A stretch of DNA of 64,000 bases from an uncultured virus (IMG/VR IMGVR_UViG_3300046387_001331) (taxonomy: Duplodnaviria; Heunggongvirae; Uroviricota; Caudoviricetes). The stretch is from the IMG/VR virus record IMGVR_UViG_3300046387_001331; one strand, 5' to 3'. The position numbers and the translations under genes were made by a program. The notes beneath the pieces are model-generated. The model was not told the DNA's origin. It ran no database searches and worked only from the letters and a program-made list of their open reading frames with translations. Every line of letters starts with the position of its first letter. Position 1 is the stretch's first letter. Shown in pieces: positions 3,001 to 56,307 of the stretch.

Positions 3001-4470
3001 CTTTCTTACTCACAGAGTATTTCTGTGTCAAATAGTTACTCAGTTTCTGCTAGTGAATCTTACTCAGAAAGTATATCATACTCACACAGTATTTCTGCTT
3101 CAAATAGTTATTCAGTTTCTGCTAGTGAATCTTACTCACAAAGTGTATCATACTCACCAAGTATTTCAGTTTCACAAAGTGCTTCACTTTCTTACTCACA
3201 AAGTGCTTCTGCGTCAAATAGTTACTCAGTTTCTGCTAGTGAATCTTACTCAGCAAGTATATCATACTCACCAAGTATTTCAGTTTCTCAAAGTGCTTCA
3301 CTTTCATACAGTTCTTCGTTCTCACCAAGTGCTTCAATTTCATACTCACCAAGTGCTTCAATTTCGTATAGTGCATCATACTCACAAAGTATTTCAGTTT
3401 CACAAAGTGCTTCCGTTTCTTATAGTGCATCATACTCACAAAGTATTTCTGCTTCACGAAGTGCTTCATTATCTTATAGTGCTTCGTTCTCACCAAGTGC
3501 TTCACTTTCATACTCACAAACTGTATCACAATCTGCAAGTATTTCATACTCACAAAGTATTTCAGTTTCACAAAGTGCTTCACTTTCTTATAGTGCATCA
3601 TACTCACAAAGTATTTCAGTTTCTCAAAGTGCTTCACTTTCTTACAGTGCTTCGTTCTCACCAAGTGCTTCACTTTCATACTCACAAAGTGCTTCAGTTT
3701 CTGCTAGTGAATCATACTCACAAAGTATTTCGGTTTCTCAAAGTGCTTCACTTTCTTATAGTGCATCATACTCACAAAGTATTTCAGTTTCTCAAAGTGC
3801 TTCACTTTCTTACAGTGCTTCGTTCTCACCAAGTGCTTCACTTTCATACTCACAAACTGCATCACAATCTGCAAGTATTTCATACTCACACAGTGTTTCG
3901 GTTTCTCAAAGTGCTTCGATTTCGTATAGTGAATCATACTCACAGAGTGTTTCATATTCACAAAGTGCTTCAATTTCGTATAGTGCATCGTTCTCACCAA
4001 GTGCTTCACTTTCATACTCACAAACGACATCACAATCTGCAAGTATTTCATACTCACAAACTATTTCTGCTTCTCAGAGTAAATCATATACAGATACTGG
4101 AACTCCATCATTGTCAGGAACACCTTCACAATCTGATACTGATTCACCAACACCTTCTCAGTCGTATACTGCATCACATTCCGACACCGGTACAATTACA
4201 GGAACAGACTCAGGAACACCAACTGCATCAATTTCATATTCAGAATCAGCATCTAACTCATATTCACCCACCGCATCTGCTTCACAAAGTTATTCAAACA
4301 CAATATCACAATCAGCATCTTCATCACTTTCATATTCAGCAACAATTTCTGCTTCACCGAGTGCTTCTTATTCTCAAACTGCGAGTATTTCGTTTACAAG
4401 TAGTGCATCTCAATCTGCTACATCTTCACAAAGTGAATCGATTTCATATAGTGCATCGGCATCTGCATCC
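1..4470 (+). repeat. Low-complexity coding repeat region encoding (Ser-X)n
   Basis: Recurrent units such as caaagtgcttcactttcttatagt and caaagtatttcatactca; interrupted once by a globular domain at ~650-1075. Confidence 0.95.
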
Positions 4471-9582: not shown

Positions 9583-9595
9583 TAAGGAAATTTAA

Positions 9596-12500
9596 ATGGC
9601 AAAGCATTCAACAAATAAAACATTATTTAGTAAAAAAACCATTGAGTTTGAAAACGGAAATGATTATGTAACAATAAGTGAGTCCGAAGATAATGTTATT
9701 TCTGGATTAAATCTAGGAAAAGAGTATACCGTTGAATCATGGATAAGTACCACAGAAATTCCCGAAGATCCAACTTTTACATATGCATCCGATGTTGCAA
9801 ATGCTTTAAAGGAAAATTCAACTTTAACTTTATCAGGAACCGTTAATGTTAATGATTTGTATGAATCGGATTTATTGTATGCAGTTAAATTTGACGGAAC
9901 TGAAATAACATTAAAAAACAAAACATCTGATAAATTTCCTGTAGATGCGAGAATTCTTATCATTGAAATGCAAGCATTATCATCAGGTACAAAATCTACT
10001 GTTGGTAACTATGAGTTTGCTGAAGTTGATTCTTATATTAGTGACGATGAAATCAAACTAAAAAATGCGTTAACCAAAACATTTGATTTTACAAATAGAT
10101 TATATGTTGTTTATCAAAAAAGATACGAAAAAATTGTAATAGATCGGGATGCACGAATTATTTGTAATTCATGGGCAACAAATTTCAACGAAATAAATGG
10201 TCTTATATTGTTATGTGCAGACGAAATTATAGTTCAAGGAAAAATTGATGGTAACTATCGTGGATTTCGTGGAGGAAATTCAGGACCACACGGAAATTAT
10301 CACGGAGGTCGTGGTGAGGGTGTCGTTCATGGATTATACAACAACCGAGCTATGGGAACAAACTACACCGGTGGTGGAGGTGGTGGATATAAACGGTCTG
10401 GTGGTGGTGATGTTGGAACTGGAGGTGGATCGGGAGGAAATGCTTCTAAAGGATATAATTCAAATAGTTTTGAAGGATATTATGGTCGTGGTGGACAACG
10501 CAATAATTATCCCGATGGTAAACTCTTTTTAGGAGGTGGTGGAGGTCAAGGTGCTGGAGACGGAGCATGGCCTGCTGAAACTTGTTCAAGTCGTGGTGGA
10601 AACGGAGGACGAGGTGGAGGAATAATCATTCTTGATGCAGAAAACACTCATATTGCAAAATTTGGATCAATAGTTGCAAAAGGACAAATGGGATTCGGCC
10701 GTGACAGAAGGTGTTCAGGTGAACCCGGAGACGGAGGTGCTGGAGCAGGTGGATCAATTTTATTTTTAGGTAATGCGATAAATCAAAATACCGGAACACC
10801 AATCAATGATTCTAATGTATGTGCCAAAGGTGGAGTACATAGGGGTGCAGGGCATTATTATGGACCAGCAGGTGGTTTGGGAATAATCCAAACAGGAGGA
10901 TATCATTTAGGTTGGATGCAAGGATGGATGGGGCATAAATTTCATAATTGCTCAGTAATTGCATCTTTTGCTAGACCATTTGGAAAAACTGGTGATGTTG
11001 ATGACTACAACACAGAAAAAAATCGTCATGCATTTTTATTAACTGCAATTCCGTTTGAAGATGGATATAAATTAGCCGCAGGACAAAGTCATAGAATGAT
11101 GCCTGTTAGTGAAAAATTAGATTTTGATAGATTTTATCATTTTGTAATTTCAAGAAATTCTGGATCATTAGAAGCAATTTACATAGATGGAAAACGAAAA
11201 GGAGTTAGAACATGGCCAAGTAATCATGTTTATGAAAATAGCAACATTATGCTTGGAGCAAATTCGGATAATGATTTTGAAAATCCTGCTCCGTTTACAG
11301 GATTCATTCAAGATTTCCGAGTAGCACAAAACAATATGTATGATTGTACAAGTTATACATTAGGAGATTCCTCAAATGTTCCAACTGAAAGTTGTACAGA
11401 TCCAACTCCGTCACCAAGTAAATCACCAAGTTATAGTAAATCTGCATCTGCTTCTTTTGAATTTCCAGATGGATGTCCAACGAGAGTTGTTCCTTATTGG
11501 GGTGGAACATCGGGAGGAGGAACTCGTACTGGACCAAGTAATTTAGGAAATGCGTTTGATGGTAAAGATGCAACTAGAACAGGATGGGTTGGTATAAGTC
11601 ATTCGGGAAGTTGGAAACAAGATAGATTTTATTTCAGTGATTCAAATAAGCAAACTCCTGGTACTTTAAGATTTTATATGCAAGGAGGGGTGAATAGTGG
11701 TTACGGAAATCGTGCGGATATGTACGTTCGTTATCATGAGTATGGAGGTGATTGGGTTTATCTTCGTAATGTAACAAATGCTTATATGCCACGTGATCAG
11801 CATTTTAAATATGAAGTAAGAGTAGATAGTGTTGCGAGAGTTGATGTTTATTGGAAAGATAGAGGAAAAGGTTCAATTAATTATTTTTATTGGTATGTTG
11901 ATTTCGAGCAAGATTGCTATCCAATTTGTGATAATAGTATATTTCATATTCAAGCAAAAGGAAATGAACCATTAAAAGACCGAAGCACTAATGAAGTTCC
12001 TATTGAAGATGGTTTTGAAGGATATTTACCTTCATTACCAAAGGTCCCGGATGGCATTGACAATCCAAATATTTTAATGGATGCTAGATTTTCAAATGTC
12101 ACAAATTTAATAAACAACGCAACTTTAGAAGGATCATATTCAATTCAAGGAAGCACTCCGTGTCAACAATCTGTGAGATTTGCAAATTCGGGAGGATATG
12201 CATATTTTGATAATTGGGATTCTAAACCACAAACACTTTCATTTGAAATAGATTTTAAAATAAATTCTCATTCTAATACTGCAACTGGTGGAGCAGACGC
12301 AGGAAGTCAATATATTTTGCATATGCAAAATGAAGAAGAAGAAAGTCATACAAATGGTCTTAGTTTAAGTTACGGAGAATCAAATAAAAGTTTATCAATG
12401 GCAGTTACAAGTGAACCACCAAGTCAACCTACCGCAGTAACAGATGCAGATGCTTTGGTTTTGGGTGAACGAGTTCATGTAGTTGTAACAATTTCATCTG

Positions 12501-15438: not shown

Positions 15439-17445
15439 ATGAAACTTTTTGAGCATAACCAAGGTGGTGGAAACAACACAGAATGTGGATCGTGGTATTA
15501 CGATAAAAAAATCTGTGAGTTTAACAATAAAATTTATATCAGACAACAAGGTCACACAAAAACTGATCTTAAACCTATATTCAATGATTATTTGGGTATG
15601 AGTGCATATGGGTCAGCAATGAGTCTTCACAACAAGATAGGCATGGAGGTAACTCAACACGCACCATCGTGGTATAAAGGTAAGAGTAGCGATCATGTTT
15701 GGTATCACGATACAAATTATAGAATGTATCATTTAAATAGTCTTGATGGTCAAGTTGAGGCCTGTGCGGCTATTGATGGAAAGGGGTTTAAGTTGGAAGA
15801 ATTTTATGAGTCTGATGAAGGTCACATTTTTTACAATGAACAAACACGAAATGACAATGAAATTTTAATTAAAAAAGATCCTAAGACTATGAAAAATGTT
15901 GTGGTGAATGTTCATAATAATCAGTTATTAAGAAACATGAGAGTAATACATGAAACTGATGATTATTTGTTTGCGATTCACGGTGGAAATACATATACAC
16001 ATTATGCAGGTGGTTTTATTAGAATATTGAAATCTGATTGTACATGGAATCGTAGAGGATGGCACGGCCGTCATACATTTGGATATCAACCAATTTATAA
16101 GAATGATGATTATATTTTGTCGTTTGTTTGGGAAGCAAATTATAGTTCTGCTCAACCAGGATTCAGTTTACATAAACATCATTGGGATGATTCTCATACA
16201 AACAATTCTAGTCGTTATTTAAGAAAAGATGGAATAACCGCTGCATATACTAATTTACAATGGTTATCAGCAGATTCAGACGGAAATCCAAATCCATCAA
16301 CTTCGTTATCATCTCGTCCTTCTATTTACTATCCAATGGAAGATGCTCATCGTATGTCAGATGGTAGTGCTTTTGTTCCTAAAGATGGTTTTTATTCTCA
16401 CGCAGGTGCGGCTATGGTAGCAGACGAAACATTGCGTAATACACACAATGTAGGAAGAATGTATGTAGCATATTTTGAAGATAGTACCGTTGATGAATCT
16501 GAACCACTTGCAATTTTACGAATTAATGTACCGATTGGTGATGATGTACCAGATGCACCTGAATATGATGTCAGAAAATGTGAATTAGATCATAGTGGTG
16601 CAGGTGATCCCGATTTGGATGTTCCAACGTGGGTGAATGTACACAAAGAAGGAGGTCGAAATGGATCGTCAGCGTGGATTTATCGTGAACAAAATCTTCA
16701 TTATTTTCGTGCGGAAAATAGTGGTGGTGGTACAAGTTCATATTTGTTGTTAACATTTGAAGACTCAAGTGGATTTGATCATCATAACCAAACATATCAT
16801 CAATTTGGAGATAGATTTTATGTTTATACAATTGAAGACGATTCTGTAAGTGCAGACATTACAGAAACTGCTTCACTTAAGTTAAAACTTGTGCAAACTG
16901 AAAATCTTGATAATCCAATTTTAGGAAAGTTTTTTCCAGGAGGTCATGCTGGAGGTTTTGAAAAGTTTGTGTTACTCAATTATACATCCGCAGAAAAAAA
17001 TCCAGTTTATGTATGGGATTCTACAACTGAAAATTTTGTAACTGAACCATCATCAGACGGAATTGTTGGTTCAATAACTTCAATAGGTGAAGATTCAACA
17101 GGAAGAATATTCAGTGTAAGATATCCGTCTTCAAACACACAGGAAATGAAACAAGAAATTCACATTGACTCAATTGATTTGCCACATGATGTAAAAATTG
17201 TACCTGAACAAGCATCTTACAATTATACGTCTGGAACAATTGATACTTTTGTAAATGTAAGTGTTTATGATGCTGAAGGAAATCGTCTTAATAAAAGTGT
17301 GGCATTGACAATCGTTGGAAGTGGTGTTAATTTCACAAGTGGAGGAGCATCAAAAACTGTATCAACATCAACAGGTCAAGATACTAAAGTAGATATACAA
17401 ATTACATCCGCATCACGAATTCAAATGACTGCGACAATATCATAA
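15439..17445 (+). CDS. Putative virion/receptor-binding protein, paralog 1 of 3
   Basis: 668 aa; shares QxHxKxxLxPxF, YDV/I..C, DSxGR and a C-terminal beta-rich domain with the next two ORFs. Confidence 0.65.
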   Translation: MKLFEHNQGGGNNTECGSWYYDKKICEFNNKIYIRQQGHTKTDLKPIFNDYLGMSAYGSAMSLHNKIGMEVTQHAPSWYKGKSSDHVWYHDTNYRMYHLNSLDGQVEACAAIDGKGFKLEEFYESDEGHIFYNEQTRNDNEILIKKDPKTMKNVVVNVHNNQLLRNMRVIHETDDYLFAIHGGNTYTHYAGGFIRILKSDCTWNRRGWHGRHTFGYQPIYKNDDYILSFVWEANYSSAQPGFSLHKHHWDDSHTNNSSRYLRKDGITAAYTNLQWLSADSDGNPNPSTSLSSRPSIYYPMEDAHRMSDGSAFVPKDGFYSHAGAAMVADETLRNTHNVGRMYVAYFEDSTVDESEPLAILRINVPIGDDVPDAPEYDVRKCELDHSGAGDPDLDVPTWVNVHKEGGRNGSSAWIYREQNLHYFRAENSGGGTSSYLLLTFEDSSGFDHHNQTYHQFGDRFYVYTIEDDSVSADITETASLKLKLVQTENLDNPILGKFFPGGHAGGFEKFVLLNYTSAEKNPVYVWDSTTENFVTEPSSDGIVGSITSIGEDSTGRIFSVRYPSSNTQEMKQEIHIDSIDLPHDVKIVPEQASYNYTSGTIDTFVNVSVYDAEGNRLNKSVALTIVGSGVNFTSGGASKTVSTSTGQDTKVDIQITSASRIQMTATIS

Positions 17446-17457
17446 GGAAAAATAAAA

Positions 17458-23165: not shown

Positions 23166-23197
23166 AAAGTGGTCATTTTCGGATGACCACTTTTTTT
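23166..23197 (+). terminator. Intrinsic terminator ending the structural operon
   Basis: aaagtggtcat-t-TTCG-g-atgaccacttt plus T run; a smaller tgtca-TTCG-tgaca hairpin lies at 23147-23160. Confidence 0.9.
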
Positions 23198-23265
23198 GCA
23201 TTATTTTCAAATGTTAATAACTTTTTGTTGCAATATACTCAGAACTGTTTCATAGTATATAAATC

Positions 23266-23385
23266 ATGTATATCAATCATTCATTCAAAAGAAGTCGAGT
23301 GGTGAAAACCTAGTCGGAGCAATTCGGCATCGTCCGCAAAACGAAGATATCGTGCGACCCCCTCTTCCCCAGAGGGGGTCTTTTT
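23266..23385 (+). ncRNA. Candidate short structured transcript: 15-codon sORF, GNRA hairpins, terminator
   Basis: Between two terminators; possible promoter TTGCAA(23228)-17-CATAGT; ggt-GAAA-acc; gtcgga-GCAA-ttcggc; tcgt-ccgcaaa-acga. Confidence 0.45.
23356..23385 (+). terminator. Intrinsic terminator
   Basis: gaccccctct-tcccc-agagggggtc, perfect 10-bp stem followed by ttttt. Confidence 0.9.
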
Positions 23386-23398
23386 ATAAAAATAATCC

Positions 23399-23427
23399 TT
23401 GACTTTTTATAATAAGTGTGGTAGTAT
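23399..23427 (+). promoter_or_regulatory. Repeated early-type sigma70 promoter, copy 1
   Basis: TTGACT-17 nt-TAGTAT, then leader acttgtattgagagtgagaaaagag. Confidence 0.85.
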
Positions 23428-23476
23428 ACTTGTATTGAGAGTGAGAAAAGAGAAAGTTAAAAAAGAGAAAAAAATT

Positions 23477-28609: not shown

Positions 28610-28654
28610 ACTAATTCAAACTGAGAGAATAACAAGAGAAAAAAAATAAAAATT

Positions 28655-29842
28655 ATGAGTGAGATTATAGCAAAAGTAGTTCAAAACAAATCACGATTCA
28701 ACGCAGTTGATTCTGACGGAAACGTCGTCAAGGGAATTTCTGCCGTGATGCGTAAGAAAGCATTTAATAGCAACAAAGCACTTCAACGTGCAATTGGCAA
28801 GACGGGTCGTCCGTTTTGGAGAATGGTTAATATTGAGGAGTTTGTATCTATTGATACCAAGTCTGCTCCTACTACTTCACGTGATGAAGCAAGTATGGAA
28901 ATCAATGAAATTCCTGAGAAGCATAATGAGATTGTTGACTTTCTCAAAAACTGCTTTAATCTCAAACCAAGCAAGTTGTTTATGAATGAAACCAAGTGGA
29001 AGTATTTGGTTCGTTCAGCAGTTCGTGGCAAGAATGTTATGATGACGGGTAACTCCGGTTGTGGTAAAACTCTTGCAAGTAAGACTCTTGCAGAAGTTCT
29101 TGATCGTCCTTTCTTTTATTTTAATCTTGGAGCAACTCAAGATCCTCGTAGTTCTTTGATCGGTAACACTCATTTCAAGAAAGAAACCGGAACCGTGTTT
29201 GCTGAAAGTTCTTTCATCAAAGCAATTCGTACTCCGAATTCTATTATTCTTCTTGACGAATTATCAAGAGCACATCCTGATGCGTGGAACATTTTGATGA
29301 CTCCACTTGATCCTCTTCAACGTTACGTTCGGTTAGACGAATCTGAAGATTCAGAAGTTGTCCCCGTTGCAGACGGAGTTACTTTCGTTGCTACTGCAAA
29401 TGTTGGTAACGAATACACTTCAACCCGAGTAATGGACAGAGCATTGCTTGATCGTTTCGTAACCGTGGAAATGGATGAACTTGAATACGAAGACGAAGTT
29501 GCTCTTCTTAAATTGCTTTATCCTGATGCAGACATCAATATGCTTGGTACGATTGGTGAAATTACCACTCATACTCGCAAGGTTGTTCGTTCTGCTGAAT
29601 CTAAGATTACCGATTCACTTTCAACTCGTAGTGCAGTTGAAATGGCCGGTCTTGCTTATGATGGATTCAATTTGCTTGAAATCGCAGAAGCATCAATTTA
29701 CCCTCACTTTTCTGATGATGGTGGTGCAGATTCGGAAAGAACTTATATGAAGCAATTCGTTCAAAAGTATGTTCAAAACGAAGATACACCTGAAGAACTA
29801 TTTTCTCTCAATCCCGATGAAAATGAATCAGTTCCATACTGA
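28655..29842 (+). CDS. MoxR-family (CbbQ/NorQ/CobS-like) AAA+ ATPase
   Basis: Walker A GNSGCGKT, Walker B ILLDELSR, sensor VATAN, MDRALLDRF arginine finger. Confidence 0.92.
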   Translation: MSEIIAKVVQNKSRFNAVDSDGNVVKGISAVMRKKAFNSNKALQRAIGKTGRPFWRMVNIEEFVSIDTKSAPTTSRDEASMEINEIPEKHNEIVDFLKNCFNLKPSKLFMNETKWKYLVRSAVRGKNVMMTGNSGCGKTLASKTLAEVLDRPFFYFNLGATQDPRSSLIGNTHFKKETGTVFAESSFIKAIRTPNSIILLDELSRAHPDAWNILMTPLDPLQRYVRLDESEDSEVVPVADGVTFVATANVGNEYTSTRVMDRALLDRFVTVEMDELEYEDEVALLKLLYPDADINMLGTIGEITTHTRKVVRSAESKITDSLSTRSAVEMAGLAYDGFNLLEIAEASIYPHFSDDGGADSERTYMKQFVQKYVQNEDTPEELFSLNPDENESVPY

Positions 29843-29854
29843 TTAAGTAATCGG

Positions 29855-29953
29855 CTCTCTCACTCGGTGGGACTCCTTTCTCTCGGGAGTCCCACCTTTT
29901 CTTTCTCTCACTCGGTGGGACTTCTATTCTCTCGGAAGTCCCACCTTTTTTTT
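29855..29953 (+). terminator. Tandem duplicated terminator hairpins (two ~48-nt units)
   Basis: ggtgggactcc/ggagtcccacc (29866-29896) and ggtgggacttc/gaagtcccacc (29914-29945) with a compensatory C-G to T-A change; T8 tract after the second. Confidence 0.9.
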
Positions 29954-32912: not shown

Positions 32913-32926
32913 AATGCATTTAGGTG

Positions 32927-32955
32927 TTGACTTTTTATAATATCTGTGGTAGGGT
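32927..32955 (+). promoter_or_regulatory. Repeated early-type promoter, copy 7
   Basis: TTGACT-17-TAGGGT, then gagagtgagaaaagag leader. Confidence 0.8.
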
Positions 32956-33004
32956 ATTTGTATTGAGAGTGAGAAAAGAGAAACTAAAATAAGGAGAGAA
33001 AAAA

Positions 33005-42641: not shown

Positions 42642-44771
42642 ATGAAAACCATAGTTTATGTGCTTTTAGGGCTACTTGTGAGCTTGCCGGTGTGGTCTAA
42701 TGAAACACCGCCGGAAAGAATTAACGCAGAGGAATTACGTGAAATTTCTCAGAAAAGAAAAGTTGTTATTATCATCAACAAAGAAGGAAAACAACTTGAA
42801 GGAAAGGTATTAGAGTATGACGGTGAGTCGGTATTATTTCAACGACAGAAAGATTTACAATTATTTCGTTTTGATTTAACTGGTTTAGCACAACAATCGC
42901 AACGTATGATTAAAGACAATTATATGACTGCGAATTATAATGTTCCAAAATTACAAAGACCACTTCAAGAAAATCAAATCAAGAAGTTCGCTGCATATGC
43001 AGACAATTTGGTGTTGGAAAAACTTCGTAGTGAAAAACAAAGACCAACCCGTGATGTAGATGATTATACTTTTATGCGTAGAGCATATCTTAAAATCATT
43101 GGTCGCATTCCAAATAAAGCAGAAATTGAAGAATTCAAAAAAGAAATGCGTGGAAACAAACTTAAATTAATCAATAAGTTATTGGATAGTGAAGGTTACA
43201 TTAATCATCAGTTAAATTATTATAGTGATATTCTTCGTATTCAGAATAAATTAAATAATACTAATATCAATAGTGGATTTCGTTATCGTGAATGGGTTCG
43301 CAATGAAATTCGTAATAATACTCCGTTTGATGAAATGGTGCAAAAATTAATTGCATCAGAAGGTGCTTATTATGAACCAGGAAGTGAACCAATTGGTTTT
43401 TATTTGCGTGATCGTGGTATGCCATTGGATAATCTTGCAAACACGGTACAAGTGTTTCTTGGAACTCGTTTAGAATGTGCTATGTGTCACGATCATCCAT
43501 TTGATAAATGGACACAAAAGCAGTTTTATGAAATGGCTGCATTTACAGATGGAGTAAGTCGTGTTCAATATCGTGAGAACTCAAAACTCGTTGGAGATTT
43601 CAATCGTATTGTTCGTAACGATAAAACAGAAGATGTTGGAACACTAAATCAATATCGCAATTATATTCGTGACATTATGGGTTATGGATTAAATGATAAT
43701 CTCGGTAAAGGAACAATTAAACTTACAGATGCTTTTATGGAAGATGACGCAAAACCAGGTGACACTCTTCTTGCAAAAGCAATATTTGCTCCACCATTGG
43801 AAATTGAAAAAACTGATACACTTCCACAAAGTCGCAAACAATTTGCAGAATGGATTACATCAGAAGCAAATCCAAGATTTACTACTGTTATTGTAAATCG
43901 TTTATGGAAACGAGCATTTGGAATTGGTTTGATTGAACCGGTTGATGATATGAACGATAATACTCAATCAAGTAATCCTCAGTTACTTGCGTATCTTGAA
44001 AAAATAATGGCATCAGTTGATTATGATGTTAAAGAATTTATGCGAGTATTATATAGTATGGACTTGTTTACACGTGATAGTGTTAAAGATGACCACAAAG
44101 GAGTAGAAACATTTTATTTTGCAGGACCACCACTTCAACGAATGAAAGGTGAGCAAATATGGGATTCACTTGTAACATTGGTATACAACGATATTGATTC
44201 ACCTGATCGTTTTCCGAGCAATTACGATGAAAAGTATCAAGCAGTTTATGATCGTTACAAAGAGTATACTGCTCAAGAAATTTATGATGAACTCAAAGAG
44301 TATCTTGCTAATACAGAAAAACCAAGTCGCAATCTTGCAGAAGTAGTTCAGCAATTAAACGAAGAAGAAGGAAGATACAAATCAAAACAACTTAAAGACA
44401 GAGATTTAATTCGTAGTAGTTATGTAGGTTATCCACCACCCGGTGGGCATCTTATTCGTCAGTTTGGTGGAAGTGACAAAGCACTTATTGAAAACTCAAA
44501 CTTTGAAGCAACTACACCACAAGTATTGAATATGTTGAATGGTTTCGTGGAAAAAAGAATTATCAATAATAAGAATGCTGATTTTATGAAGCAGATGGCA
44601 CAAGAAAATCGTGAAACCGGAAAAATTGAAGACATCTTTATGAGCATTCTTAATCGTAAACCAACTTCAACAGAAATGAAATTACTTAAAAAATATATTG
44701 ACGAACCAAACGGTGCAAAACATATTGCGTGGATTTTAATGAACTCCCACGAATTTATTTTCATTCGTTAA
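42642..44771 (+). CDS. DUF1549/DUF1553-domain protein (PVC-type, secreted)
   Basis: Signal peptide; DDYTFMRRAYLKIIGRIP, FLGTRLECAMCHDHPFDKWTQKQFY, NPRF...VNRLWKRAFGIGLIEPVDD, WILMNSHEFIF. Confidence 0.9.
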   Translation: MKTIVYVLLGLLVSLPVWSNETPPERINAEELREISQKRKVVIIINKEGKQLEGKVLEYDGESVLFQRQKDLQLFRFDLTGLAQQSQRMIKDNYMTANYNVPKLQRPLQENQIKKFAAYADNLVLEKLRSEKQRPTRDVDDYTFMRRAYLKIIGRIPNKAEIEEFKKEMRGNKLKLINKLLDSEGYINHQLNYYSDILRIQNKLNNTNINSGFRYREWVRNEIRNNTPFDEMVQKLIASEGAYYEPGSEPIGFYLRDRGMPLDNLANTVQVFLGTRLECAMCHDHPFDKWTQKQFYEMAAFTDGVSRVQYRENSKLVGDFNRIVRNDKTEDVGTLNQYRNYIRDIMGYGLNDNLGKGTIKLTDAFMEDDAKPGDTLLAKAIFAPPLEIEKTDTLPQSRKQFAEWITSEANPRFTTVIVNRLWKRAFGIGLIEPVDDMNDNTQSSNPQLLAYLEKIMASVDYDVKEFMRVLYSMDLFTRDSVKDDHKGVETFYFAGPPLQRMKGEQIWDSLVTLVYNDIDSPDRFPSNYDEKYQAVYDRYKEYTAQEIYDELKEYLANTEKPSRNLAEVVQQLNEEEGRYKSKQLKDRDLIRSSYVGYPPPGGHLIRQFGGSDKALIENSNFEATTPQVLNMLNGFVEKRIINNKNADFMKQMAQENRETGKIEDIFMSILNRKPTSTEMKLLKKYIDEPNGAKHIAWILMNSHEFIFIR

Positions 44772-44801
44772 TTTTAAAAACTAGAAAAGGAAAAAAATAA
44801 A

Positions 44802-46085
44802 ATGGAAAACCTATTAAAAGACGAACTCTCAAGAAGAGGATTTATCACAGGCATGGCAAAATCTTGTCTTGGTGTTAGTGCAATCTTAGGAGCAGAAGAT
44901 TTACTTGCTTATGAAATACCTGGTAAAACTGCATCTGCTCGTCACGTTATCTTTTTGTATATGGCAGGTGGAATGACTCATATTGATACATTTGATCCTA
45001 AACCTGAAAATAAGGATGTTATGGGTGAAACAACTGCTATCAATACATCTGCTGATGGAGTTCAGTTGGGTAATTGGTTACCAAATACTGCAAAGCAAAT
45101 GCACAATGCGGCTTTGATTCGTAGTTTGACAAGTAATCAAGGAGCACACCAACAAGCAAACTATTTGCTTCATACTTCTTATCAACGTAGAGGAACTATC
45201 AAACATCCTACGTTGGGAAGTTGGGTAAGTCGTTTATCAGGTAAATTGAATCGCACTCTTCCTGCTCACGTTCGTATCAACGGAGGAAGTGATGTATTAG
45301 GTGCGGGATTCTTGGAAAGCAAACATGGACCTCTTCCATTGGGCAATCCAAGTAGTGGAATTCAGAATGTTAAGGCAGCCGGTTATCTTGAGCAATCATT
45401 ATACACACAACGTCTTCATACTGCACAAGAATTTAACAAAATGTTTCTTGGTGAATACTCTCAAAAACAAGTACGTGCGTACACAGACTTATATAACGAT
45501 GCAGTAAAGTTGATGAGCAGTAAAGACCTTGAAGCATTTGATCTTACAAAAGAAACTGAAGCAACCCGTGAACTTTACGGAGAAAATAACTTTGGACAAG
45601 GATGTTTGCTTGCTCGTCGTTTAGTTGAAACTGGTGTTCGTTTTGTTGAAGTTCAACTTGGTGGTTGGGATATGCACAACGGAGTATTTGACGGAATGGC
45701 AACACGTGGTGCAACACTTGACCAAGGATTATCAGCACTTCTTTCTGATCTTGAAAGAACCGGTAAAATAGATGACACTATGGTTGTTGTAGCAAGTGAG
45801 TTCGGAAGAACACCTGAAGTTAAAGCAGGTCGTATCGGACGTGACCACCACCCAACTGCTTTTAGTGCTATGCTTGCTGGTGGAGGAATTAAAGGTGGAA
45901 CTGTTTACGGATTAAGTGACGAAAGAGCACACTATGTAGAAGAAGAAGGTTCATCCGTTGAAGACCTCAATGCTACCATTGCTCATGCTCTTGGTCTTAA
46001 ACTTGAAGAAATACATTACTCACCGAGTGGACGTCCATTCAAGGTAGCACACGATGGTAAGGTTTTGAATAAGATTCTTGTTTAA
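44802..46085 (+). CDS. DUF1501-domain protein with Tat signal
   Basis: LSRRGFI; VIFLYMAGGMTHIDTFDPKP, FGQGCLLARRLVETGVRFVEV, GWDMH, SEFGRTP, GRDHH. Confidence 0.92.
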   Translation: MENLLKDELSRRGFITGMAKSCLGVSAILGAEDLLAYEIPGKTASARHVIFLYMAGGMTHIDTFDPKPENKDVMGETTAINTSADGVQLGNWLPNTAKQMHNAALIRSLTSNQGAHQQANYLLHTSYQRRGTIKHPTLGSWVSRLSGKLNRTLPAHVRINGGSDVLGAGFLESKHGPLPLGNPSSGIQNVKAAGYLEQSLYTQRLHTAQEFNKMFLGEYSQKQVRAYTDLYNDAVKLMSSKDLEAFDLTKETEATRELYGENNFGQGCLLARRLVETGVRFVEVQLGGWDMHNGVFDGMATRGATLDQGLSALLSDLERTGKIDDTMVVVASEFGRTPEVKAGRIGRDHHPTAFSAMLAGGGIKGGTVYGLSDERAHYVEEEGSSVEDLNATIAHALGLKLEEIHYSPSGRPFKVAHDGKVLNKILV

Positions 46086-46744: not shown

Positions 46745-46747
46745 TGC

Positions 46748-46776
46748 TTGACTTTTTATAATAATTTTGGTAGTAT
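46748..46776 (+). promoter_or_regulatory. Repeated early-type promoter, copy 10
   Basis: TTGACT-17-TAGTAT; about 60 nt identical to copy 15. Confidence 0.85.
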
Positions 46777-46822
46777 ACTTGTATTGAGAGTGAGAAAGAA
46801 CCAAATTAAAAAAGGAGAAATT

Positions 46823-49943: not shown

Positions 49944-51314
49944 TTAACTTATTTTTAAAAACGGACCTGCACTTTTATACTGCTTTTTTGCTCCAAAGTA
50001 AAGAACTGTGATAAACTTTTTGAATTCTTTACCTGTAAATTGATTGAATATTTTTATCCACTGGAAGCATTGTAATTTTGAACTTAGTTGTGATGCAGTT
50101 CTAGCATTATTTATTTCTTCTTGTATTGCTTGTCGTAGGGTGATTTCCCAATCTGCATTACCGAAGAAAATAGAGTTGCCACCTATTTTTTTATTACTAA
50201 CAGATTTATATTGCTCAATCCAATGTTTAATATCGTTTTCTGTCCACTTTCCCACTTTGGGCAATGAACTTGCCATTATTCGTTTGATTGGTTTACTTGC
50301 TAAATACGGATCAATTGCTTGTGTAAGAGATACCTTTCCTAGTTTAGCAGCCGCACCTGCTTCTGTCATATCCATTTGAGTATTTTCTCTTTGATTTCCA
50401 CTAAATGATCTAATCTGAACGGTTACAGATTTATTTTCAATTCTCAATTTAAACATCAGTTCACCTGTGTTAAATTCTCCACGTGAATTGAGAGATAAGT
50501 CACAATTAATATTTCCTGCGATATCAATGTCATTGATGATAATATCATCAGTATTTCTGATATTAGTTGCTTCGACACTTGCATTTTTTTTATTCAATGC
50601 AATTTTCTTTAAAGAAATCCCAACTAAATGTTTTTTTCTAAACCAAACACGCATTGCTTCATTTAAAATGTCAAGTCTTTCGGGTGGATCACACTTTAGT
50701 TCACTTATTTGTTGAATTTTCTTTTCAATACTAGATGCGTGACTATTCTTTATAGCAAAAATGTCAGCAGGATTCCATGCATCTTTCTTAGATACACCAC
50801 ATTTAGTTTTAGCAATTTTTTCAAGTAAAGGCATAATTCCTTGATCTCTTGAAAATTTGTATCCTTTGCTTGCTAAAAACTTTTTTGATGCAACTGCTTG
50901 TTTGTAAAAAGTTTCATACCACTCATCATCACACTTGTAAATTTTTTTTATTTTAGAAATATGAGGCATACGATTGTTTTCAATAAAATGCTCACATACA
51001 AGACGAGAAGCATTTTCTTGCTTTGCAGTTTCATTTGCATCAGTACCAGTTAATCCAGACCCATCTCCAAATTCAATTGTAATACCTGTAATATTGGCAA
51101 CTTTTTTACATTCAATTCTTATTTGATTTATATTTTTTGTGTCGGATAAAATTCTAGGTATTTTAATTTTGGAGAATGGTGTATTTGGATCAAGAATAAT
51201 GGTTTCTTTGTATTTGTTTTGAATATGTTCAAAAATTTCAGCAACCGGAGCAGAAAACTTTTTATTTTTCTTGATGATTTCATTCTTGCTTTTTGCTCTA
51301 AAATTAAATGCCAT
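49944..51314 (-). CDS. Putative PD-(D/E)xK restriction-like endonuclease
   Basis: Only long minus-strand gene; TAKQE ... WNPADIF ... LVGISLKK fits an E...D...xxK nuclease pattern. Confidence 0.6.
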   Translation of the reverse strand: MAFNFRAKSKNEIIKKNKKFSAPVAEIFEHIQNKYKETIILDPNTPFSKIKIPRILSDTKNINQIRIECKKVANITGITIEFGDGSGLTGTDANETAKQENASRLVCEHFIENNRMPHISKIKKIYKCDDEWYETFYKQAVASKKFLASKGYKFSRDQGIMPLLEKIAKTKCGVSKKDAWNPADIFAIKNSHASSIEKKIQQISELKCDPPERLDILNEAMRVWFRKKHLVGISLKKIALNKKNASVEATNIRNTDDIIINDIDIAGNINCDLSLNSRGEFNTGELMFKLRIENKSVTVQIRSFSGNQRENTQMDMTEAGAAAKLGKVSLTQAIDPYLASKPIKRIMASSLPKVGKWTENDIKHWIEQYKSVSNKKIGGNSIFFGNADWEITLRQAIQEEINNARTASQLSSKLQCFQWIKIFNQFTGKEFKKFITVLYFGAKKQYKSAGPFLKIS

Positions 51315-51343
51315 ATATATAAATATAGATTTAAAGATTTAAC

Positions 51344-51372
51344 TTGACTTTTTATAATAAATTTGGTAGGTT
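51344..51372 (+). promoter_or_regulatory. Repeated early-type promoter, copy 12
   Basis: TTGACT-17-TAGGTT. Confidence 0.8.
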
Positions 51373-51378
51373 ATTTGT

Positions 51379-52059
51379 ATGAGAGAAAGTTCTAAGACAA
51401 CATTAGAAAAGTATAATAAGGGCATTACTATGCATTTTGCAAAAAGTAAGTATGACAACTGCAAGTGGAACAAAAGCACAAGTACATGGAGTATGCTCAA
51501 ACGAAGATACGACAATGGCCAAAGAGACTCACAAATGCAAAAATTGTACGATGCAGAGTACTCACTTATTCCGTGTTCTCCTAAAGATAATTTTACTTTC
51601 GATGAATTAATTCAAAAAATAGACGATGTAGTAAATGATACATGGTTTCGTAAAAAATTCGGAAGACTTTTCTCGGATACAATATTACAAGTAGAAAATG
51701 CAAGTTCTCGTCAAAATATGGCATATTCTTTTGGAACTGATTTTCTTTCATTTCCACCTCACTTTTGTAATTTTCCTATTATACTCCATGAACTAGCACA
51801 TACTATTGCTGATCGTTTGCAGTTCGTTGTTGCATTTAATTACAATTACACCACTCACGGAAGAATGTTTGCTTTTATTTATCTTGAACTCGTAAGAAAG
51901 TTTATGGGTGAATCCAGTTATACTATTCTTAAAGCAGGATATAAAAACTTTAATGTTAAGTATCGCAATCGTATTCCACAAACTTCTGCGAAAAAGAAGA
52001 TTTTACGTGAAAGAATTGGTAAATATAATATTTATAATAATGAAAACAATATTTCATAA
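51379..52059 (+). CDS. HExxH metallohydrolase (SprT/TIGR04338-like)
   Basis: RDSQMQKLYDAE, IILHELAHT, HGRMF. Confidence 0.7.
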   Translation: MRESSKTTLEKYNKGITMHFAKSKYDNCKWNKSTSTWSMLKRRYDNGQRDSQMQKLYDAEYSLIPCSPKDNFTFDELIQKIDDVVNDTWFRKKFGRLFSDTILQVENASSRQNMAYSFGTDFLSFPPHFCNFPIILHELAHTIADRLQFVVAFNYNYTTHGRMFAFIYLELVRKFMGESSYTILKAGYKNFNVKYRNRIPQTSAKKKILRERIGKYNIYNNENNIS

Positions 52060-52195
52060 AATAGACTCAAAGCACTTGGATTGTTTGAGTGGGGTATGTG
52101 AACACACATCGCATCAATTTAATTCATTATATCTTTTACTGATACCAGTTATTGTCTTGGGATATATTACATTTAGAAAGCATATTAAGTCATAA
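52040..52195 (+). CDS. Small membrane protein
   Basis: MKTIFH...; CLSGVCEH then a hydrophobic segment. Confidence 0.5.
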   Translation: MKTIFHKIDSKHLDCLSGVCEHTSHQFNSLYLLLIPVIVLGYITFRKHIKS

Positions 52196-52223
52196 AATTT
52201 ATATAATATAATATTTATATTCT

Positions 52224-52376
52224 GTGTTAGAATGGATATGCGATAAATTAGGATGGATCATTGCTTATATGTTATTACCTATAACTTATCCAATTTACTA
52301 TTTCCAACAAAAAAAAGAAAGAAAGATTGCACAAGTGAGAAAAAATGCACTTGCTAAAAGAAATAGTTTAGGGTAA
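52224..52376 (+). CDS. Small membrane protein (50 aa, GTG start, not in track)
   Basis: LGWIIAYMLLPITYPIYYF then basic tail; ATATTTATAT motif at 52211. Confidence 0.4.
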   Translation: MLEWICDKLGWIIAYMLLPITYPIYYFQQKKERKIAQVRKNALAKRNSLG

Positions 52377-52502
52377 TTTAAATATAATAGTTCCAAAATA
52401 AATTTAAAAATTGATTGTTTTCAATCAATAACTTCTGTTTGTCTCAAAAAAAGCAAATAATAAGTTGACACATATAGTAAATTAGAATATATTTAGTGTT
52501 TT

Positions 52503-52634
52503 ATGAATTTTAATACAAATAGCAAATGCAATTATTTATTGACAAGATTGGCATTTGAGGCGGGCAACAATAACGTCATATATGGTGATGCTAACCATAT
52601 CCTGGGTGTGAATAGAAAGTATAACTTTTTATAA
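52503..52634 (+). CDS. Candidate near-leaderless 43-aa sORF or structured RNA
   Basis: TTGACA(52465)-17-TATATT then ATG at +10; hairpin atatggt/accatat at 52580-52600. Confidence 0.35.
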   Translation: MNFNTNSKCNYLLTRLAFEAGNNNVIYGDANHILGVNRKYNFL

Positions 52635-52745
52635 AAACTCTTTAATTATAGTAAAAAATATAATATTTATTATAATTATAAAAAGTCCTTCATAAAGAAG
52701 GCACGTTTTCAATTAAGAAAACATAGAACATAAGGAAATAGCAAA

Positions 52746-52979
52746 ATGAAAGCAATATTCGAAAAAGTAAATGGATTCGTTAAGGGCTTGACTGGTATTT
52801 TTCTCGGAGTCGTAGGACTCGGAGTTGCTGGTCAAATCGTTCTTGGTGATAAAGTTGGACTCGATGTTATCGGTAACCTTCAAGGTATCGTTGACGGGTT
52901 CGTTGGTGAAGGTGCAAGTCTTGCAGGTTTAATTACTCTGCTTGTAGTTTTAGCATTGATCGCTGGTGACGACAAGTAA
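52746..52979 (+). CDS. Small two-TM membrane protein
   Basis: RBS TAAGGA; Gly-rich hydrophobic helices; own promoter motif and terminator. Confidence 0.8.
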   Translation: MKAIFEKVNGFVKGLTGIFLGVVGLGVAGQIVLGDKVGLDVIGNLQGIVDGFVGEGASLAGLITLLVVLALIAGDDK

Positions 52980-53029
52980 ACTATACTAGGTAACACCTAG
53001 AATATGTCTGAGCAATCAGGCTTTAGTTT

Positions 53030-53067
53030 TGTACCCCTTTCCTTATGGTCTGGGGTACATTTCTTTT
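53030..53067 (+). terminator. Intrinsic terminator with anti-RBS loop
   Basis: tgtacccc-tttccttatggtct-ggggtaca then tttctttt. Confidence 0.8.
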
Positions 53068-53074
53068 ATAAAGG

Positions 53075-53103
53075 TTGACATGGTGGTTGTGTATTTCTAT
53101 AAT
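53075..53103 (+). promoter_or_regulatory. Consensus sigma70 promoter
   Basis: TTGACA-17-TATAAT; ATG at +7. Confidence 0.9.
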
Positions 53104-53109
53104 AATGGC

Positions 53110-53271
53110 ATGAATTTATACACAGAAGTATTAAACGCACTTAAAATTGTAAATGATCCACGTGAAGATTCTTTAGATAGAATGCTAAAGCATGAAGACC
53201 TTGTAAAGATCAAACGTCTTCTTGATGACCAACTCACACGAAAGTTTCCTGTTGATGGAAAGCAAACCTAA
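53110..53271 (+). CDS. Small hypothetical protein (leaderless)
   Basis: MNLYTEV directly after the promoter. Confidence 0.55.
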   Translation: MNLYTEVLNALKIVNDPREDSLDRMLKHEDLVKIKRLLDDQLTRKFPVDGKQT

Positions 53272-53494
53272 ACGATTTTTCTTTCACTACAACAAACCTG
53301 AAAGTCGTAGACAGGGTCGCAATGTACTTACGGTGCATTGGAAGAACTCTTGCATACCAGTGAATCATTTGAAGATCAATGTACCCATAGAATCACATAC
53401 TCAGAAATCACAACCACATTGCGTAATGCGTGGATTCGCAAATTCGGTGGAAATAATCGAGAAAAATAATGAGATGACTGCTTTTATTGCTTGA
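53255..53494 (+). CDS. Conserved-looking phage hypothetical protein
   Basis: FFFHYNKPES...TVHWKNSC...QPHCVMRG. Confidence 0.7.
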   Translation: MESKPKRFFFHYNKPESRRQGRNVLTVHWKNSCIPVNHLKINVPIESHTQKSQPHCVMRGFANSVEIIEKNNEMTAFIA

Positions 53495-53519
53495 CTTTTT
53501 ATAATATCTATGATTGAAT
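53491..53519 (+). promoter_or_regulatory. Repeated early-type promoter, copy 13 (weak -10)
   Basis: TTGACTTTTTATA core; -10 position reads TTGAAT. Confidence 0.6.
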
Positions 53520-53525
53520 ATAGGT

Positions 53526-53846
53526 ATGCTTGAGAGAGAAAGAGTATTAGAAAAGTTAAAATCTGCATATTCCCAAAAATGGGATTCCAACAAAAAGGTA
53601 AGATGTCCAAGACTTAAAACTCTTGCGAACATCATCAATGAATTTGTGGACGGATATACTGCCAAAATTCGCAGTAGTTATCACACTTCAAGCACACGCA
53701 CTGGTAGATACTGCATTGATGGTGCAACTCGTTCTGCTACTATGCTAACGATACACGGAGTAAATGGGTATATTAAAAAACACAATAGTGCAGAAGCATA
53801 TCGTAGCAATTACGACATCGTAGATTGGATTTTAAATCATATATGA
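53526..53846 (+). CDS. Hypothetical protein
   Basis: MLERERV at +7 from the -10 position. Confidence 0.65.
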   Translation: MLERERVLEKLKSAYSQKWDSNKKVRCPRLKTLANIINEFVDGYTAKIRSSYHTSSTRTGRYCIDGATRSATMLTIHGVNGYIKKHNSAEAYRSNYDIVDWILNHI

Positions 53847-54091
53847 AACTACTAATTAGAAATCACAAAGCAAATGGTGGAAAATACAACAACGAAAACC
53901 ACGGAAAATTACTCAAGATATTCAAAATACTTGAAGCAGATTCACTTGGATTCGTTCAAGAATATTGGTCTGAAACATTTGAACCTATTCCAAATACCAA
54001 AGATTGGTTGCTTGAATTGAACACAGAACCCGAATGGTATAAGTTAGAAAAAATACTTGCATTAAAGAATGTTGAAGAATTTAGTGCTTGA
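53843..54091 (+). CDS. Hypothetical protein
   Basis: ATGA overlap; stop within the next -35 box. Confidence 0.65.
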   Translation: MKLLIRNHKANGGKYNNENHGKLLKIFKILEADSLGFVQEYWSETFEPIPNTKDWLLELNTEPEWYKLEKILALKNVEEFSA

Positions 54092-54116
54092 CTTTTTATA
54101 ATAATTTTGGTAAGAT
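54088..54116 (+). promoter_or_regulatory. Repeated early-type promoter, copy 14
   Basis: TTGACT-17-TAAGAT. Confidence 0.85.
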
Positions 54117-54122
54117 GCTTGT

Positions 54123-54368
54123 ATGATAATGAGAGAAAGTGAAGTGAATATTACAATTAAACATTTTACACAAACCGGTTCATCAACTTGGGTTTTGATG
54201 AACGAAAACAAAGAACTCATGTATGACGCAAACGACAATGCTCTGTTTGGTTATACTCGCAAAGAAGCAGAGGCACTTGCACTTAGAATTGCCGATGATA
54301 TGAATTTTACCAATATTCAAACCGAATACTTTTATGGTGGTCAACGCAAATATAAAACTATTAAGTAA
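54123..54368 (+). CDS. Hypothetical protein
   Basis: ATG at +7 from the -10 box. Confidence 0.65.
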   Translation: MIMRESEVNITIKHFTQTGSSTWVLMNENKELMYDANDNALFGYTRKEAEALALRIADDMNFTNIQTEYFYGGQRKYKTIK

Positions 54369-54718
54369 TGAACATAAACAAAATCAAATATTATTCCACC
54401 GAAAAGTTAGAAGGCATCTTGGATGAACTTGAAAATGGAGATGGTGGTCGTGGTATGAAAGATTACATTCTTGCGGACATGATCCGTGATATTATTTCTT
54501 TTCGTGAAGAAAATGAATAAAACCCAAGCAAGACAACGTATACGAGAATTAAAAAATATAATTCAGGTGTCTAATGTTAGGTTACAAAACGCAATGGCAC
54601 AAAATCACTATAAAGTTGCAGAATCATTGATTTTGATAATATCAAACAATTTTAACGAACTAAATTCAATCAGACACCAAATAAAAGCAAATAAAAGCAC
54701 GATTTCGCAAAATAATGC

Positions 54719-54747
54719 TTGACTTTTTATAATAATTTTGGTAGTAT
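54719..54747 (+). promoter_or_regulatory. Repeated early-type promoter, copy 15
   Basis: TTGACT-17-TAGTAT plus full leader. Confidence 0.85.
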
Positions 54748-54805
54748 ACTTGTATTGAGAGTGAGAAAAGAGAACAAGAAAAAAACAAAAAAAGGAGAGA
54801 AAAAT

Positions 54806-55015
54806 ATGTTGATTGCAGAATATAATGTCGGTGATAATATTAACGTTGATGGTCGTGATGCCATCATTACTAAGGTTGAAACCGAGTCGTGGGTGACCGG
54901 TGGTAAGCAACCTTATTACTTCGTGGAACTACTTTCTGATGGAAGTAGGGAACTTCACGCAGAAGAGGACATCAACTCGGGTGAGTTGCTTCCTGTTATT
55001 TCTTTTAACTCCTAA
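54806..55015 (+). CDS. Small SH3/Tudor-like protein
   Basis: RBS AAGGAG; YNVGDNI...AIITKV...YFVEL. Confidence 0.65.
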   Translation: MLIAEYNVGDNINVDGRDAIITKVETESWVTGGKQPYYFVELLSDGSRELHAEEDINSGELLPVISFNS

Positions 55016-55906: not shown

Positions 55907-56245
55907 ATGACACTTTACGATTACAATGTAGATAAACATCAAGTTTTTGATGGCAACCCCAATCATCTGATTGTAGATGCTTCCAAGATTGGTCTTCCAC
56001 CGGGATTCTTTCCAAATTGGATAAGTACAAATGATATTGGCAACGGAAATCCATTTTATTCAGATAAAATAATTCGTGAAATGGTCGGACAAACTGATAG
56101 TGAAATTGAAGATATTATGTACGGAGATGTTGAGTGTTATGTGTACAAGCAAAATGGTGGAGGTACGGTATTGCTCGTAAACAATGATTCTTACAATTAC
56201 ACAGAATATGCTGATGAATACTATTCACAGAAAAATAATGCTTGA
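55907..56245 (+). CDS. Hypothetical protein
   Basis: DASKIGLPPGFFP motif; stop within the next -35 box. Confidence 0.65.
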   Translation: MTLYDYNVDKHQVFDGNPNHLIVDASKIGLPPGFFPNWISTNDIGNGNPFYSDKIIREMVGQTDSEIEDIMYGDVECYVYKQNGGGTVLLVNNDSYNYTEYADEYYSQKNNA

Positions 56246-56270
56246 CTTTTTATAATAATTGTGGTAGATT
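56242..56270 (+). promoter_or_regulatory. Repeated early-type promoter, copy 16
   Basis: TTGACT-17-TAGATT plus full leader. Confidence 0.85.
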
Positions 56271-56307
56271 ACTTGTATTGAGAGTGAGAAAAGAGAAAGA
56301 TAAAAAA

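Follow-up and report, generated by a model that had tools for sequence, protein, structure and literature searches.

Bacterial messages can be controlled from their own 3′ ends. To our knowledge, pairing of a 3′ untranslated region (3′UTR) with the Shine-Dalgarno (SD) sequence of the same bacterial mRNA has been documented for very few messages, and the loop of a transcription terminator is usually regarded as sequence-neutral. We describe here a terminator loop that is the exact complement of the ribosome-binding site (RBS) of its own message. It belongs to a gene for a 77-amino-acid (aa) protein on the + strand of a stretch of 64,000 nucleotides (nt) from an uncultured marine phage (IMG/VR record IMGVR_UViG_3300046387_001331), which was analysed as a whole and is called the window throughout. 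Because related phages keep the match or re-invent it, the loop complementarity is probably no coincidence but a brake on translation that is built into the RNA.

Several described systems come close. In icaR of Staphylococcus aureus, a UCCCCUG motif in the 3′UTR pairs with the SD of its own message, blocks the initiation complex, and creates a substrate for RNase III; the authors raise the question of action in cis or in trans and of the fit with coupled transcription-translation, and they term their case a “singular example” (PMC3868564). The 77-aa unit has the feature that defines the icaR type: an anti-SD motif in the 3′UTR that is complementary to the SD region of its own mRNA. Unlike in icaR, where the motif lies in a long 3′UTR, the phage motif forms the very loop of an intrinsic terminator, in a 3′UTR of ~80 nt. 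In addition, the phage device recurs across genes and lineages with covariation, and it is known here from sequence alone. In the highly expressed hbs message of Bacillus subtilis, a 14-bp pairing that joins the 5′UTR to the 3′UTR modulates RNase Y cleavage in the leader and hence stability (PMC5737220). The likeness to hbs lies in the long-range 5′–3′ UTR complementarity within one small mRNA; the difference is that the hbs pairing leaves the SD unmasked.

Terminator loops also act as pairing surfaces in small RNAs. Bases in the terminator loop of the small RNA LhrC reportedly pair with the translation initiation region. The terminator loop of OxyS kisses the start region of fhlA in trans (10.1101/2024.01.16.575843). 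The phage loop resembles both in exposing terminator-loop bases as a surface for pairing with an initiation region; unlike these trans-acting RNAs, it sits in the terminator of the mRNA itself, and its best match is the message's own start region. Finally, in type I toxin mRNAs such as hok/Sok and aapA/IsoA, a 5′–3′ fold-back silences translation of a small hydrophobic protein; hok is also mentioned in the icaR paper (PMC3868564). The 77-aa unit shares with hok and aapA the 5′–3′ complementarity in the mRNA of a small hydrophobic protein, and it differs from them in that an antisense antitoxin was not found, the protein belongs to a conserved phage family, and the device is common to an ATPase gene.

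A literature search whose scope did not extend to subscription literature found no description of a terminator loop complementing its own RBS. Self-pairing between a 3′UTR and an SD is itself known; the phage case differs in placing the anti-SD within the message's own terminator loop, in its phage setting, and in its recurrence with covariation. Across uncultured marine phages, such loops are conserved, have been re-invented, and covary. If the braking role is real, the device would provide a compact and transplantable means to set protein yield per transcript, phage annotation would have to treat terminator loops as regulatory sequence, and a system of ~385 nt would be at hand for the study of how 3′ elements act under coupled transcription-translation.

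A terminator loop complementary to its own ribosome-binding site

The SD region CATAAGGAAA (52729–52738, with an AAGGA core) and the loop segment TTTCCTTATG (53038–53047) are exact complements over 10 nt. The preliminary description of this DNA had reported a 9-nt match between TTTCCTTAT (53038–53046) and the RBS sequence ATAAGGAAA (52730–52738); the match is present, and its true exact length is 10 nt. In RNAduplex, 13 of the loop's 14 bases pair with 52725–52738, at −14.0 kcal/mol. Among the other + strand start regions of the window, 1 of 67 reaches 10 nt against the loop (that of the gene starting at 17458), and a 10-nt match arises by chance with a probability of 0.006 when the loop is shuffled and of 0.0009 when the start region is. 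On the + strand within 3 kb to either side, 52729–52738 is the sole site with at least 10 nt of complementarity to the loop. The 9-mer ATAAGGAAA is itself over-represented, with 5 occurrences on both strands where 1.40 ± 1.16 are expected, a number reached in 1 of 100 shuffles. Its placement before two large genes, also reported earlier, was borne out: the 9-mer stands at 9582–9590 before the ATG at 9596 (1940-aa open reading frame, ORF), and the full 10-mer CATAAGGAAA stands at 17441–17450 before the ATG at 17458 (697-aa ORF), where it is a possible trans target.

These two sites belong to a compact unit (52671–53068) of promoter box, leader hairpins, SD region, ORF, 3′UTR hairpins, and terminator. 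The TATAAT −10 box of the unit's own promoter (52671–52676) lies inside the block TTATTATAATTATA, which is conserved in close relatives, and places the likely transcription start near 52683. Two hairpins follow in the 5′UTR (52685–52704 and 52705–52722); among the relatives they carry compensatory changes, with both sides altered in 3 of 7 pairs of the first helix and 6 of 6 of the second, and 94–95% of cells are paired. The SD 9-mer has a spacing of 7 nt to the ATG at 52746, and the ORF (52746–52979) encodes two hydrophobic segments at about residues 15–35 and 52–75. The protein has no match in Pfam or PHROG, and its closest Atlas clusters are viral hypothetical proteins with 207, 67, and 581 members. 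Downstream, two predicted 3′UTR hairpins (52986–53000 and 53006–53021) precede the terminator; in the second of these, 3 of 6 pairs are changed on both sides, with 96% of cells paired.

The terminator itself (53030–53059) is predicted to fold into an 8-bp stem with the 14-nt loop TTTCCTTATGGTCT. Its arms are TGTACCCC (53030–53037) and GGGGTACA (53052–53059), and 4 G-C pairs adjoin the loop. With a hairpin energy of about −16 to −17 kcal/mol followed by TTTCTTTTAT, it has the stem and U-tract of an intrinsic terminator. The short loop that usually goes with these, 3–8 nt, is absent: the loop has 14 nt here and 16 nt in the related locus L019, and the remaining terminators of the window have loops of 4–8 nt. 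The terminator scan applied to the window missed the hairpin because that scan allows loops of 3–8 nt only. The hairpin is followed by the T-rich tail TTTCTTTTA (53060–53068), able to pair with the SD via G·U, and then by the next promoter, TTGACA-17-TATAAT at 53075–53103, which agrees with the consensus at 12 of 12 positions.

Public RNA data give a weak hint that the cassette is expressed. In 14 RNA-labelled runs from marine, seawater, salt-marsh, and aquatic metagenomes, about 20–26% of the sampled words of 52400–53400 are present, roughly a cassette-sized share. Contigs assembled from such runs lie mainly over the unit, in 4 of 4 runs from 4 studies (52662–52970; 52667–52963 in two pieces; 52705–52953; 52488–53066); as assemblies they carry no readable ends, strand, or level, their uncovered parts are uninformative, and carry-over of DNA is possible.

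Two further ideas were set aside. A third helix proposed by RNAduplex, GCAAAAU with AGUUUUG, is not conserved in the relatives and would be incompatible with the terminator stem. Antitermination by binding of the leader to the nascent 5′ arm and loop would be kinetically unlikely, since the partner lies 300 nt away and only 5–14 nt are transcribed before the stem closes.

Conservation and recurrence in related phages

A metagenome scan yielded 14 close loci of the 77-aa unit (84–100% aa identity), which were sorted into lineage A, lineage B, and the single locus L018. Lineage A consists of the window and 11 loci, 12 sequences in total, and both the SD region and the loop are kept throughout it. 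No stretch of the unit is more conserved than the terminator hairpin, in which 3 of 30 columns vary, and 3 of 14 in the loop. The rest of the 3′UTR varies in 27 of 50 columns, the 5′ hairpins vary in 25 of 38, and the third codon positions in 51 of 77. The window and L022 have the same base at 30 of 30 hairpin positions, and at 171 of 234 positions of the coding sequence. The SD region CATAAGGAAA is identical in 10 of the 12 sequences, with its C lost through a 2-nt deletion in L017 and L021; changes in the loop include an A to G in L010, which retains a G·U pair, and a C/T polymorphism facing G. From this pattern of substitution, the unpaired terminator loop of lineage A is under purifying selection. 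In 8 of the 12 loci, no other site matches the loop as well as the start region of its own gene. Three extra loop pairs (AGA with UCU) were also considered; the C/T polymorphism fits G-C or G·U pairing in AGAAC leaders and is mismatched in L013 and L016, and these pairs are not claimed.

Lineage B consists of L019 (84% aa identity) and L020, which is the same sequence in shorter form. L019 keeps the stem GTACCCC/GGGGTAC, and its loop differs, with 16 nt reading CTTTGTTAGTACATTT. Within it, TTGTTAGT complements ACTAACAA, which spans −7 to +1 of the gene's own start, that is, the spacer and the A of the ATG. The loop has only one site of at least 8 nt in the 5231 nt of the locus, and none of the 68 start regions of the window equals it; the chance probability of the match is 0.034 with a shuffled loop and 0.009 with a shuffled start region. 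The comparison indicates that the relation between loop and start region was re-created independently in L019 with another sequence pair.

The same relation is found in an unrelated gene of the window. A CobS/MoxR-like AAA+ ATPase of 395 aa (28655–29842, + strand; PF07728 AAA_5, 8.4e-18; phrog_249, 9e-24) is followed by tandem terminators (29866–29945), the first at 29866–29896 with loop TTCTCTC and the second at 29914–29945 with loop ATTCTCTC. The leader motif is GAGAGAATA (28623–28631, + strand); both loops complement 28623–28630, and a match of 8 nt is found in 1 of the 67 other start regions. The preliminary description had given the pair at 29925/28623 as another case of the pattern seen in the 77-aa unit. 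The sequence pair holds, with GAGAGAAT at 28623 facing the loop ATTCTCTC at 29926; the leader site lies 24 nt before the start codon and not at an SD. The 7-mer GAGAGAA is a motif of leaders in general: it stands in 4 of 68 start regions, and it belongs to a promoter-leader module present in five copies.

To extend the comparison, we assembled 80 viral loci of the CobS family (~55% aa identity), with starts re-called by tblastn. A hairpin stands 3′ of the gene in 74 of the 80, and 33 of these hairpins (27 distinct) form a large-loop set, defined by a loop of 9–30 nt that is at least 70% pyrimidine and contains TCC or CTC. They share a GC-rich, co-varying stem and the loop consensus UUUUAUUUCCUUUCU. 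Across the 27 distinct loci, cognate pairs of loop and start region match over 8.81 nt, against 7.98 ± 0.20 nt for permuted pairs (p = 0.0002), with energies of −9.78 against −8.60 ± 0.26 kcal/mol (p = 0.0002). A test blind to the hairpins, which paired the 5′ region with the 133 nt past the stop codon across 13 clades (80% aa), gave p = 0.002 (energy) and p = 0.001 (length). In 11 of the 27 loci, no other site in the 2.5–3.5 kb of the locus matches the loop as well as the start region of the gene itself; the matches run up to 15 nt (L038), and others have 13 nt (L036) and 12 nt (L056 and L072).

The SD core covaries with the loop. Cores of GGAA/T go with T/ATCC loops in 25 of 29 cases. A CCC loop accompanies both of the 2 GGG cores and 1 of 39 other cases (hypergeometric p = 0.004), and a CTCC loop accompanies 2 of 6 GGAG cores and 1 of 35 other cases (hypergeometric p ~0.05). 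A second pair of motifs occurs in these units: where the 5′ end of the leader carries GAGAG or TGAGA, CTCTC or TCTCA follows within 30 nt past the stop codon in 12 of 28 loci; among 38 loci that lack the leader motif, 1 has it (Fisher p = 6e-5, with no correction for phylogeny). The counterpart of this pair in the window lies at 29853–29859.

Lineages of the family that lack an SD (L043, L069, L088, L092, L098, L099, L100, and L102) have an AACCCC leader before the start and GGGGTT after the stop. The match of this type in L069 has 10 nt, and the mirrored leaders were seen by eye. The AACCCC/GGGGTT pairs are a hairpin-free form of 5′–3′ complementarity.

The complementarity has thus been maintained in evolution in several ways: it is kept in lineage A, re-created in L019, and apparent in the CobS family as a cognate excess with covariation of the core, and it is lost in L018. 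On the evidence of lineage A, L019, and the CobS loci, the earlier statement of a match between a loop and its own leader stands.

A proposed brake on translation and its rivals

We lean, by a modest degree, toward the view that the large terminator loop of the 77-aa unit is an anti-SD element selected to pair with the SD region of its own message. The 77-aa gene would operate as a self-contained unit of promoter, structured leader, gene, and terminator. Ribosomes would load on the message during its synthesis. Once the 3′ hairpin is transcribed, its loop would kiss the SD region over up to 10–13 bp (about −14 kcal/mol) and compete with binding of the 30S subunit. The completed mRNA would then be throttled, or it may be flagged to nucleases or shielded from them. 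The target of selection would be control of translation initiation, or decay linked to it, with the loop probably acting on completed transcripts and in cis, and with a repressive effect. The CobS/MoxR-like ATPase gene of the phage group would use the same anti-SD loop in a GC-rich 3′ hairpin.

A broader proposal, which we put forward only tentatively, is that many aquatic phages possess “self-limiting” messages. In these, the loop of a 3′ hairpin or terminator would serve as an evolvable anti-SD, and the mRNA would close on its own RBS after transcription. The device would have arisen in many lineages and in at least two unrelated genes, one encoding the 77-aa membrane protein and the other the CobS/MoxR ATPase, and would constitute a general class of phage gene control. 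If so, protein output would be tied to ongoing transcription, with a quick stop when the promoter is switched off, and the class would be one so far undescribed in print.

Several observations weigh against the braking role. In the window as a whole, cognate 5′/3′ pairs of the 68 + strand genes match no better than shuffled ones (6.06 vs 6.19 nt, p = 0.86; energy p = 0.58). The earlier suggestion of a general mechanism linking terminator loops to initiation sites consequently fails for the window: the match is confined to units with large-loop terminators, namely 3 hairpins in 2 units among the 5 clean terminator hairpins (4 transcription units) of the window. The terminators at 23166 and 23356 have no match to their own start regions; the former has a 4-nt loop, and the sole 8-nt complement of the latter lies within a coding region and away from any start region. 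Within the unit itself, the pseudoknot-free ensemble pairs the SD (52732–52738) with the U-rich tail (53060–53066) at a probability of 0.43–0.76. The pairing of loop and SD is a pseudoknot, which is beyond the scoring of folding tools, and a 10-bp helix within a 14-nt loop would be strained, so that fewer pairs probably form simultaneously.

The relatives supply further points on this side. One loop change, a T to C in L014, breaks a pair, and alignment A1 shows no true covariation for the loop-SD helix, because lineage A is nearly invariant there. L018 (88% aa identity) has a different terminator with a 4-nt loop and no match, and ten distant relatives (40–54% aa) are likewise devoid of a match. 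Distant homologues in this range of identity, carried by nine viral contigs, have a gene that lacks an SD and is operon-terminal, with terminator loops of 4–9 nt and no 5′–3′ match; likewise, L001–L005, L007–L009, L024, L026, and L028 have no SD, lie in operons, and have short loops and no 5′–3′ match. The absence of the match from L018 and the distant relatives means that the feature is dispensable.

In sequences as A/T-rich as these, the length of a match is by itself weak evidence: the best matches span 8.98 nt for the real loops and 8.48 nt for shuffled pyrimidine loops, and no more than 4 of 49 loops surpass 95% of their shuffled versions. The difference lies in the position of the best site: of 31 unique best sites, 21 fall at a start region, against ~25% in shuffles. 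The permutation tests are only partly corrected for phylogeny. Many anti-SD hairpins of the CobS family have no T-tract and are often no terminator. The loops of L031, L034/37, L035, and L065 match sites 7–30 nt downstream of the hairpin better than their own starts, and in L034/37 and L035 the better-matched site is the RBS of the next gene. In other loci, the anti-SD hairpin lies upstream of CobS (L087 863–898, L094 780–848, L097 578–627, and L104 1025–1056), and such matches to downstream sites, together with the upstream hairpins, mean that repression of the gene's own start is not the sole possible wiring. Elsewhere, an anti-SD hairpin follows the second downstream gene (L042 2930–2965 and L077 2662–2696). 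The displaced hairpins, upstream or after the second gene, still complement the CobS start region over 8–12 nt.

Of the other explanations, the first is a trans regulator. The terminator hairpin, as a stable 3′ fragment or within the intact mRNA, would bind all start regions that bear the motif: its own and those at 9596 and 17458. The 10-mer before the ATG at 17458 and the 9-mer before that at 9596 fit such a role, as does the complementarity of the loop TTCTCTC to the generic leader motif of 4 of 68 start regions and of the repeated promoter-leader family. Some CobS loops fit the RBS of neighbouring genes better, and the terminator loop of OxyS sets a precedent in its kiss with the fhlA start region (10.1101/2024.01.16.575843). 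The excess is, however, cognate-specific, with the own start as the unique best site in the 11 of 27 CobS and 8 of 12 lineage-A loci already given. Moreover, the loop of L019 matches its own start region only, and no start region among the 68 of the window, in searches that covered parts of the genomes. A trans regulator is rather unlikely.

The second is coincidence of composition: purine-rich leaders would complement pyrimidine-rich loops and tails by default, and the best cases would have been picked from 64 kb. The near-equal length of matches from shuffled pyrimidine loops, the negative window-wide test, and the pairing of the SD with the U-tail speak for it, and the p values of single cases reach only 0.006–0.03. 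Yet conservation of the loop far exceeds the neutral rate, the match in L019 is independent and unselected, the SD core covaries with the loop, and permutation tests that preserve composition are significant, at the level of clades included. We consider this explanation quite improbable.

A third possibility is that the loop is conserved for another cause, with its match to the SD arising as a side effect. Candidate causes are a protein site, a mimic of the 3′ tail of 16S rRNA, the tuning of terminator strength, and a terminator-promoter recombination module of the kind found in T4-type phages. The CobS loops have the common consensus UUUUAUUUCCUUUCU, which we take to resemble the anti-SD tail of 16S rRNA; a consensus promoter stands immediately after the hairpin of the window, and the flanking sequence downstream of the hairpin varies among the relatives. 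Set against this, matches of 10–15 nt exceed the SD core and include locus-specific A/T flanks, the pairing of CCC loops with GGG SDs is unexplained by a 16S mimic, and the L019 loop lacks an anti-SD core and nonetheless matches its own spacer and start codon. A by-product origin is distinctly improbable.

We give almost no credence to self-silencing of a toxic or holin-like peptide in the manner of hok or aapA, which the preliminary description had proposed and for which the two hydrophobic segments of the small protein and the 5′–3′ complementarity speak: the − strand of 52650–53100 has no promoter-like site of at least 9 of 12 in a consensus scan (which a weak promoter could escape), the neighbours in the window and in L001 (HNH endonuclease and methyltransferase in the latter) include no lysis-related match and thus no lysis cassette with an endolysin of the kind that marks a holin, the protein family is conserved and widespread in viruses, its distant members sit inside operons with no 5′–3′ match, and the same device is found on an ATPase gene, which is not a toxin.

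Other features of the window

The window has a GC content of ~33%, and its phage genes lie nearly all on the + strand. Consensus scanning finds sigma-70-like promoters, and profile searches identify a UvdE endonuclease and a DNA ligase in addition to the CobS/MoxR-like ATPase. Its relatives are of marine metagenome origin. A megablast of window positions 51000–55000 against 50,697 phage records returned no matches, and a search with Rfam 15 at gathering scores found none in the window or in 10 loci.

Giant ORFs occupy much of the first part of the window (1–15418). The first extends over at least 3193 aa and is open where the window begins; the second, of 1940 aa, contains Laminin_G_3 and a leishmanolysin-like stretch, and is followed by three paralogous ORFs of ~670 aa (phrog_20698). 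Farther along, 42642–46085 encodes a DUF1549/DUF1553 (PSCyt2/PSD1) protein and then a DUF1501 protein (E 8e-114), a combination characteristic of cellular genomes of the Planctomycetes type and unusual for a phage.

At 23225–23385, a promoter-like sequence is followed by ~120 nt that contain no ORF and by a strong terminator (23356–23380, −17 to −19 kcal/mol); with no match in Rfam, the region is a candidate small RNA. Finally, a promoter and leader module running from CTTGACTTTTTATAATAAT to GGTAGTATACTTGTATTGAGAGTGAGAAAAGAGAAAG is conserved in 5 copies (23398–23460, 32926–32990, 46747–46810, 54718–54790, and 56241–56300), and may represent a class of phage promoters in which the GA-rich leader is fixed.

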